From Eledone cirrhosa (taxonomy: Eukaryota), in the NCBI GenBank assembly GCA_964016885.1, contig OZ024753.1, forward strand, positions 16,120,001 to 16,184,000: DNA of 64,000 bases. Reading direction: 5' to 3'. Each line of letters opens with the position of its first letter. Position 1 is the first letter of the stretch. The translations under genes were made by a program, and so were the position numbers. Positions 53,647 to 54,130 of this stretch are shown in pieces. The notes beneath the pieces are model-generated. The model ran no database searches, had not been told where the DNA came from, and saw only the letters and a program-made list of their open reading frames with translations.

Positions 53647-54130
53647 ATACATTATGAAGAGAGAAGAAACATTTAGATATAATTAGTAATAAAATGTATC
53701 ATACCCAAACTGTTCCTAAATTCCTCGCGTGACTATCTCCCCCTCCGCATTTTGGGATTCTTTCTCACGTCGTGTAGACGCGTTCTTGAGACTAGTAAAA
53801 TGAGGTATCCTCTTGATAAGTCGGCAGACCTCGCAAGGACTCTATATCTTTGATATATTGTTTTTGTTTATGCCACGAAACTACGTAGTCGAGGAATTTA
53901 GGAACAGTTTGGGTATGATACATTTTATTACTAATTATATCTAAATGTTTCTTCTCTCTTCATAATGTATTTTTAACTCTGATACTGGTTCAGTCTAGTT
54001 CAAACTGAATTGGTCTGTCCCAGTCATTCATTGAGCAACATCGGTGAAGTTGGCACCCTTAACTCACAGTTGGGTGCGGATGCATTCATGTATATATGTG
54101 TGTGTCCGCATGTATCTGTGTGTTTCTAAA
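53647..54130 (+). mobile_element. Non-coding hammerhead-bearing element with 81-bp inverted repeats (Penelope pseudo-LTR/retrozyme-like), copy 1
   Basis: Inverted arms 53647-53727 and 53890-53970 with the hammerhead between them. Embedded in (TA)n. Confidence 0.75.
53808..53895 (+). ncRNA. Type I hammerhead, U3-A8 core variant, extended stem II (family E)
   Basis: TCCTC-TTGATAA-GTCGGCAGAC..GTTTATGCCAC-GAAA-CTACGTA-GTC-GAGGA. Confidence 0.78.

Follow-up and report, generated by a model that had tools for sequence, protein, structure and literature searches.

Insertions of Penelope-like elements (PLEs) have been described as 5'-truncated partial tandems of pseudo-LTR (pLTR) type that often stand next to an inverted, 5'-truncated copy and that show a bias toward (TA)n, the microsatellite target of several clades; the authors of that description termed the mechanism behind these tandem and inverted structures undefined (PMC8557442). 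The hammerheads of PLEs are reported to show U3-A8 covariation, a bulged helix II, and a small palindromic helix III, and to act as dimers; PLE hammerhead motifs on opposite strands, 100-700 bp apart, have also been described (PMC4209133). Tandem repeats of type I hammerheads are known as non-LTR retrozymes, which are expressed as circRNAs (PMC7229834) and have been argued to derive from Penelope-like elements as non-autonomous forms (bioRxiv 10.64898/2026.07.22.740005).

We analyzed a stretch of 64,000 nucleotides of the Eledone cirrhosa genome (contig OZ024753.1, positions 16,120,001 to 16,184,000, forward strand), referred to here as the window; coordinates are positions within it. Self-comparison of the window showed that positions 53647 to 53727 are the exact reverse complement of positions 53890 to 53970, matching at 81 of 81 bases with no further base pairs at either end. 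The perfect 81-bp inverted repeat claimed in a preliminary description of this DNA is therefore real and cannot be extended, and it is far beyond chance. The same description correctly placed the start of the right arm at the C of a GTC (53890), which corresponds to C17 of a hammerhead-like motif. When positions 53640 to 53980 were folded as RNA, the predicted structure was an 81-bp duplex of -167 kcal/mol (z = -21.6 relative to shuffled sequences).

The two arms belong to a repeated 591-nt unit, which we numbered from a real genomic unit at locus L026, with U1 defined as the base after the predicted hammerhead cut (window position 53891). The left arm (53647 to 53727, minus strand) is inverted and runs from U80 back to U1, plus C591; its outer 3' terminus (..CATAATGTAT) adjoins (AT)n. 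The forward arm (53725 to 54128, plus strand) is a 5'-truncated unit that runs from U426/429 through U591/U1 to a terminus at U245 (..TTTCTAAATATAT), which also adjoins (AT)n. The 81-bp inverted repeat exists because both arms contain U1 to U80. Its right arm (53890 to 53970, plus strand) consists of C591 plus U1 to U80 of the forward copy and is internal to the element, with 158 bp of element lying beyond it.

The arms meet head to head at a TCG microhomology (53725 to 53727), the bases of which fit both arms when the window is compared with the canonical unit (..TATATCGCGTGAC); TCG also fits the canonical continuation of the forward copy (..ATCGCGTGAC). Because of this 3-nt microhomology, the breakpoint in the window is ambiguous over four positions (U591, U1, U2, and U3). 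A genome search found the 23-mer that spans the junction only in two local copies, both in the window, and the junction therefore represents one event. The second copy is a duplicate of the whole two-armed insertion, located 752 bp downstream of 53647 to 54128 at positions 54399 to 54880 (plus strand) and 99.4% identical to it (3 differences in 482 bases). In this duplicate, the inverted arm occupies 54399 to 54479, and the predicted cleavage follows position 54642. Both copies lie in an (AT)n microsatellite tract of approximately 10.5 kb (50468 to 61026), which we delimited by TRF (period 2) and by mapping G/C-containing islands. Several other short insertions are also hosted by this tract.

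Across the 3.0-Gb genome, the canonical form of the element family is a head-to-tail tandem with a 591-bp period. Arrays range from partial units up to at least 5 units, and some arms continue through more than four units. The unit is non-coding, with a GC content of 41.6% and a longest open stretch of 86 aa. Using terminus-specific patterns that included the TA repeats, we obtained 1941 genome matches for the U80 terminus and 1038 for the U245 terminus. At every mapped locus, the outer ends are fixed at U80 and/or U245 and abut (TA)n, and the inner (5') ends vary. Our sample of insertions came from contig 1, where the first 100 listed U80 termini were retrieved and 98 proved independent. In 52 of these 98 sampled insertions, the U80 arm is joined head to head, within 20 nt, to a U245 arm; the remaining 46 have no U245 partner joined within that distance. 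BLAST overlaps at the head-to-head junctions are mostly 0-8 nt, and arm lengths among the insertions run from 38 nt to >2400 nt.

The arms of one insertion also share their sequence variants. Where they overlap, which is where concordance was measured and where later gene conversion between arms could contribute, arms within one insertion carry the same allele at 728 of 735 shared polymorphic sites, compared to 75.5% when the arms come from different insertions. The window follows this pattern, its two arms sharing the minority G at U21. The arms of an insertion were thus copied from a single template or, at the least, from a single source. The preliminary description had proposed that the left arm is an inverted copy, made during integration, of the 5' end of the self-cleaved RNA. 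The number of U80 termini, the frequency of two-armed insertions, and the allele concordance all identify the left arm as an inverted retro-copy, so the first part of that proposal stands; its second part, the tie to self-cleavage, fares differently, as described below.

Both 3'-end sites lie in related sequence. The 21-nt motif TTCATAATGTATTTTTAACTC (U69-89; 53959 to 53979, plus strand) surrounds the U80 site, and it is identical at 16 of 21 positions to U234-254, which surrounds the U245 site 165 nt away. No other two 21-mers of the unit match at 16 or more positions (1 of 150975 pairs). A sister family carries a canonical hammerhead that scores in Rfam, located 57 nt upstream of a terminus that adjoins (TA)n, and the last ~20 nt of that terminus resemble the U80 tail of the 591-nt family; no RT frame was found within 1.5 kb in the flanks of this sister family. 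In addition, contigs of ~620 nt from two sequencing runs are circular permutations of the 591-nt unit, which are silent on expression and on the junction.

In human L1 5' inversion, a single insertion combines a 5' segment in inverted orientation with a 3' segment in forward orientation. Ostertag and Kazazian are said to have explained these 5' inversions in 2001 by twin priming. The insertions described here resemble that arrangement in combining an inverted and a forward segment, apparently from one RNA, with the two joined by microhomology. They differ in that one fixed internal site marks the start of the inverted arm, whereas that of L1 starts anywhere, and in the sequence overlap between the arms, which points to a multimeric or circular template. 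A PLE RT/GIY-YIG protein would be the enzyme, rather than L1 ORF2p.

The anatomy of the family agrees with that of PLE insertions. Like them, the family shows 5' truncation, head-to-tail partial tandems, an adjacent inverted copy, and a (TA)n microsatellite target, and it resides in a genome rich in elements that combine RT and GIY-YIG domains. Compared to the published account, which gives a 30-40-bp 'tail' (PMC8557442), the family has two different, sequence-defined 3' ends, and its 591-nt unit is non-coding, with no frame >86 aa. Metazoan non-LTR retrozymes are alike in their non-coding tandems, low GC content, co-occurrence with PLEs, single type I hammerhead-like motif per unit, and short palindromic helix III, but the unit of 591 bp is larger than the typical 150-450 bp (PMC7229834). 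The family further differs from them in a U3-A8 core, a long branched helix II, and the lack of an Rfam match. It thus has the retrozyme features of low-GC, non-coding tandems that each bear a type I hammerhead-like motif, the hammerhead itself being predicted. The locus belongs to a Penelope-type, retrozyme-like family, a kind that is already known.

We located the type I hammerhead-like motif at positions 53808 to 53895 (plus strand) by reading the sequence and by a descriptor scan. Helix I pairs UCCUC (53808-12) with GAGGA (53891-95). It is followed by the core segment UUGAUAA (53813-19), in which U3-A8 replaces C3-G8, and by helix II, GU(C)GGC...GCCAC (53820-76), which has an insert of ~46 nt that is predicted to be branched. 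The GAA of the motif lies at 53877-79, and helix III is the palindromic ACUACGUAGU (53880-89), forming 3 bp with a 4-nt loop. C17 is at 53890, and cleavage is predicted between 53890 and 53891. The core positions U4, G5, A6, U7, and A9, the G10.1-C11.1 pair, G12, A13, and A14, the A15.1-U16.1 pair, and C17 are all present; by direct reading, every element of a type I hammerhead is in place except C3-G8. Like the described PLE hammerheads, the motif combines U3-A8 with a bulged helix II base and a small palindromic helix III, the latter implying that it would work as a dimer, and it occurs on opposite strands 100-700 bp apart; it differs in its ~46-nt, predicted-branched helix II insert and in a helix III of 3 bp plus a 4-nt loop rather than an absent one (PMC4209133).

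Our descriptor required at least 5 bp in helix I, at least 4 bp in helix II (one bulge allowed), and at least 3 bp in helix III, and it admitted either C3-G8 or U3-A8. Over the 128 kb that the two strands of the window make up, its sole matches were the two copies of the family, and it matched none of 20000 shuffles of the unit, numbers that overstate the significance of the match, given that the descriptor was composed after the motif had been seen. Rfam returned no hammerhead at the locus, either at the gathering score or at E <= 10 on positions 53600 to 54150, although the same hammerhead model finds 18 canonical hammerheads over its cut-off elsewhere in the genome. The only Rfam matches at the locus were microRNA-like, at chance level, and fell on the repeat arms. 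The minimum-energy structure predicted for the motif region differs from the hammerhead fold, and the stability of that region is indistinguishable from that of shuffled sequences (z = 0.04).

Variation among family copies was also compared with the motif. Subfamilies, which show 0-10% private divergence, share no variant in the core, helix I, helix III, or the base of helix II. At the essential hammerhead positions, this amounts to 0 shared variants compared to ~1.9 expected, a difference that is not significant. The variable sites are the bulged C523; A537, A547, and A556, each of which exchanges A and G opposite a U; and U8 and U14. The three A/G sites belong to the extension of helix II. 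On the sense strand, A/G differences make up 16-17 of the 30 shared variants, and we therefore considered an A-to-I (ADAR) editing footprint as their source; we rejected it because the more diverged (older) copies carry G, so that the change ran G>A. Judged from its sequence, from its likeness to the published PLE hammerheads, and from the presence in this genome of the sister family with its canonical hammerhead and of a Penelope-like element with a related motif in both flanking repeats (L154, below), the motif is with high probability hammerhead-derived, and its activity as a ribozyme has a moderate probability.

The preliminary description had read the end of the left arm, close to the predicted cut, as a DNA footprint of cleavage in vivo. 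If that reading applied, the inner ends of other family copies would be linked to the GUC, and the counts do not show such a link. Among the 98 sampled arms, 91 run through the GUC site, being longer than 80 nt. Of 97 mapped inner ends, one lies exactly at U1 (L076, a solo 80-nt arm between TA repeats), compared to 0.22 expected from the mean stop rate. Locus L058 also seemed to end at U1, but its arm continues to the limit of the retrieved sequence; this artifact is not counted. We also counted junctions genome-wide with a filter under which the three bases before the boundary are all non-canonical. This yielded 4 junctions at U1, 3 at the control position U301, and 6 at the control position U131. 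Inner ends elsewhere in the family are spread over the whole unit, the outcome that the preliminary description had itself named as evidence against its reading.

For inner ends joined to A/T-rich flanks, we searched with a degenerate pattern covering 35 places from U585 to U7 and sorted the matches by eye. The pattern produced 58 matches genome-wide, 12 of which proved to be joined to other sequence. The TA-joined ends numbered 6 at U583-585, 5 at U586, 10 at U587-589 (where the position is ambiguous with TA), 1 at U591, 7 at U1, 8 at U2/3, 1 at U3, 1 at U4, 2 at U5/6, and 5 at U7 or beyond. There is no single-base spike around the cut site; the 7 ends exactly at U1 compare with roughly 2.7 per position locally. 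In the sample, the U1-30 bin holds 11 true inner ends (the tabulated 12 included the L058 artifact), compared to ~6.6 expected, an estimate obtained as 146 passes x 30 nt x 0.0015 per nt. The excess of inner ends around the cut site is therefore broad and at most less than two-fold, and a few of these ends may be occasional run-off products on cleaved RNA. Stronger hot spots lie at U175-177, at U421, and to either side of a hairpin predicted at U184-222. With ~3000 arms in the family, some 15-25 are expected to end within 1-2 bases of any given position, and one of these lies in the window. The short arm in the window most likely ends at the predicted cut site by chance; seen against the family as a whole, such a coincidence does not exceed what chance would give.

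Given these counts, we consider it unlikely that the cDNA of the inverted arm ran off at U1 on a hammerhead-cleaved RNA, which would make the locus a fossil of cleavage in vivo. Several observations are compatible with such a run-off. The end of the arm in the window allows U1, and a cDNA that reads ..TTCCTC and then GCGTGAC fits a switch with a TC overlap. The solo arm L076 and six more TA-joined ends stop exactly at U1. Three of the 4 filtered junctions at U1 are joined directly to (TA)n, compared to 0 of 6 at control U131 (the filter at control U301 excludes both TA phases by design), and the motif itself reads as a plausibly active hammerhead. Against this, the junctions at U1 show no genome-wide excess over the controls, and nearly all sampled arms cross the site. 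The TA-joined ends sorted by eye include 21 at U583-589, which lie upstream and cannot be run-off products, compared to 19 at U1-6. The TCG microhomology leaves the window breakpoint ambiguous over 4 nt, and chance alone would produce this kind of coincidence in ~1.4% of two-armed insertions, of which there are at least 1000.

It is more improbable that a forward copy already in place later gained an inverted duplication of its first 81 bp, through template switching or hairpin repair. The surrounding 10.5-kb (AT)n region is prone to secondary structure, the later local duplication of the block with its 752-bp period shows that the region does rearrange, and perfectly symmetric snap-back junctions occur at four loci (L003, L053, L055, and L059). 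However, the inverted arm has as its outer end the sequence-defined U80 terminus, beside the shared 21-nt motif, that recurs at 1941 places, which is not expected of a random rearrangement, and the inner coordinates of the two arms, U1 and U426, are asymmetric, so the junction is no simple fold-back. The preliminary description had named MITE-like terminal repeats with target duplications as an alternative. That the element is a DNA transposon of MITE-like or foldback type, flanked by TA target duplications and with the arms as its terminal inverted repeats, is very improbable. Such an element would account for the long perfect inverted repeat and for a position in TA repeats, which Tc1/mariner-type MITEs commonly target; but any target duplications are unreadable in the (TA)n context, the right arm is not terminal, the arms vary in length by the range given above, nearly half of the sampled insertions (46 of 98) lack a U245 partner within 20 nt, and the canonical copies are 591-bp head-to-tail tandems. 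Equally remote is an assembly artifact in which long reads formed a palindromic chimera. Assemblies are known to be weak at inverted junctions within AT-rich repeats, and the listed sequencing contigs do not bridge 53727/53728; yet the assembly contains the junction two times, with 3 differences in 482 bases between the copies, and the same architecture recurs at dozens of independent loci with differing inner junctions.

We infer that the two oppositely oriented arms, which are overlapping parts of one 591-nt unit, probably arose in a single Penelope-type event and that the end of the short arm at the cut site is most likely a chance outcome. Read from the anatomy of the insertions, the GIY-YIG endonuclease of a Penelope-like element would nick both strands of a TA repeat, and each 3'-OH would then serve as a primer for reverse transcription, using one or the other AU-rich site. 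The template would be a multimeric or circular RNA of the family, copied by twin priming or template switching, and the two cDNAs would be joined by microhomology, TCG in the case of the window. The hammerhead variant, with its U3-A8 core and palindromic helix III, would process the tandem transcripts. The integration junctions of the family do not record hammerhead cleavage.

Penelope-like elements are abundant in this genome. From 10596 first-look GIY-YIG candidates, 150 were scored, and all 150 pass the Pfam cut-off. One Penelope-like copy, L154, has a 938-aa open frame with an RVT_1 score of 28 bits (cut-off 29.6) and, at the C terminus, a GIY-YIG score of 28.3 bits (cut-off 22.6). The element is flanked by direct repeats of 1.06 kb that are 97.9% alike, each with a UUGAAAA...GAAA-ACCGGU motif, and its 3' end reads ..TTTCTA|(AT)n. 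The only features found in common between these PLEs and the 591-nt unit are the U3-A8 core type and the terminal TTTCTA(A)-(AT)n; the pLTR of L154 and the unit have no significant alignment (local alignment score of 23, compared to a shuffle mean of 21.6). No autonomous partner that shares the sequence of the unit was found among 12 GIY-YIG loci and 8 long-frame PLE loci, and the twelve GIY-YIG loci gave only low-complexity matches to the unit.

We also considered a broader combination of these elements, in which the family is very young and records how a Penelope-type RT builds tandem and inverted insertions, with both nicked (TA)n strands priming on one multimeric or circular ribozyme-bearing RNA at the two sites marked by the 21-nt motif, and in which the rare arms that end at U1, including the one in the window, are true run-off fossils. 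We hold this combination to be doubtful.

The preliminary description also suggested that the left arm could act as an off switch for the ribozyme. In the modeled fold, the duplex would bury the 3' strand of stem I, in agreement with that suggestion. There is no sign of a selected regulator, because the junction exists only here, as 2 local copies, and is the by-product of one event. A transcript of the locus would equally be a substrate for double-strand-RNA pathways.

If true, a cleavage footprint at this locus would have provided a rare read-out of hammerhead activity in vivo, and the family-wide counts lend it no support. On the ribozyme side, current Rfam models miss the motif of this family, a probable natural hammerhead variant of U3-A8 type whose helix II is long and branched. 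As a record of integration, the family is an ordinary yet unusually clean example of Penelope-type insertion, with ~3000 near-identical arms and two sequence-defined 3' ends; it is further distinguished by a single apparent template per event and by inner-end hot spots beside a predicted RNA hairpin. Because the mechanism of tandem and inverted PLE structures is called undefined in the account cited at the outset (PMC8557442), the junctions of this family could constrain models of twin priming or template switching in Penelope-type insertion.

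Four insertions of the 591-nt tandem retroelement family have perfectly symmetric inner junctions, in which both arms start at a common unit coordinate: U190 at locus L003, U371 at L053, U341 at L055 and U176 at L059 (positions in the 591-nt unit, U1 being the first base after the predicted hammerhead cut). Snap-back of a nascent strand would give junctions of this kind; the junction of the window insertion, in contrast to these four, is asymmetric. Family-wide, the inner ends show hot spots in unit coordinates. Among the 52 two-armed insertions found among 98 sampled independent U80 arms, the U245 arm (each arm being named for its fixed outer 3' end) starts at U175-177 in five, at U81-94 in four and at exactly U421 in three, and the U421 start was also found at L022, from the first set of loci. 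The starts at U81-94 would fit a cDNA that halts at the position of the second primer. A hairpin is predicted at U184-222, and the inner ends of U80 arms cluster on either side of it.

In the window, the 10.5-kb (AT)n tract at 50468-61026 harbours seven or more short islands containing G/C: both copies of the 591-nt family (53647-54128 and 54399-54880) and the islands at 51372-51397, 51456-51740, 51911-52099, 52674-52739, 56890-57206 and 59691-59959. The island at 52674-52739 ends in CCTGATGATG, which is possibly a truncated hammerhead core. Another short family that shares the architecture of the 591-nt family lies at 51942-52095, where a perfect snap-back palindrome (arms of ~38 nt, centre GCCGTCGAAACGGC) precedes a forward segment, ~75 nt long, whose end, ..CATTTCCTCCGTTATATAT, adjoins (TA)n. 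This short element recurs in L026 (L026:148-355), the locus that supplied the reference unit, and flanks the array there.

Two tRNA-like sequences lie at the edges of the tract. One, at 50401-50458 on the minus strand, matches the Rfam tRNA model at 31.2 bits over model positions 8-63 only; the other, GGTTAGCG...GTTCGATTCC, begins the island at 59691-59959 and is consistent with a tRNA-derived SINE. Further repeats near the tract occupy 47546-47996, 48420-49782, 61027-62345 and 62904 onwards. They include a 61-bp tandem repeat (7.4 copies, 98% identity) and AT-rich tandem repeats of 43-153 bp, and two copies of an element starting C[GT]ATGACCAAAAACGTGAGG lie one on each side of the (TA)n run 62546-62907.

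A sister family (L131-L140, e.g., G000:C4:309200894-309200938) carries a canonical hammerhead that matches RF00163 at 35-38 bits, with CUGAUGA and a helix III of 2 bp. Its terminus, ..TACTCTCTTAAT, lies 57 nt downstream of the cut site and adjoins (TA)n in some copies, while others run on into TTTTCGGCTCTG... At L131, a head-to-head palindrome lies immediately upstream of the hammerhead motif. Contig C8 holds two more RF00163 matches, on opposite strands with ~200 bp between them.

The Penelope-like element L154 (G000:C1:145868000-145877000, minus strand) has direct flanking repeats of 1.06 kb that are 97.9% alike, each containing a minimal hammerhead-like motif, U3-A8, and its 3' end, ..CACTTTCTA, adjoins (TA)n. 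The motif occurs once in L155, and downstream of the frame L155 and L158 are the same in sequence. Separately, at L023 (G000:C2:60809686-60809949), a GIY-YIG match lies ~500 bp away from an insertion of the 591-nt family.

Private divergence in the subfamilies of the 591-nt family ranges from 0 to about 10%, and the diagnostic changes from old to young copies are mostly G>A and C>T. Because many insertions show a private divergence of 0.0-0.3%, the activity of the family is very recent.
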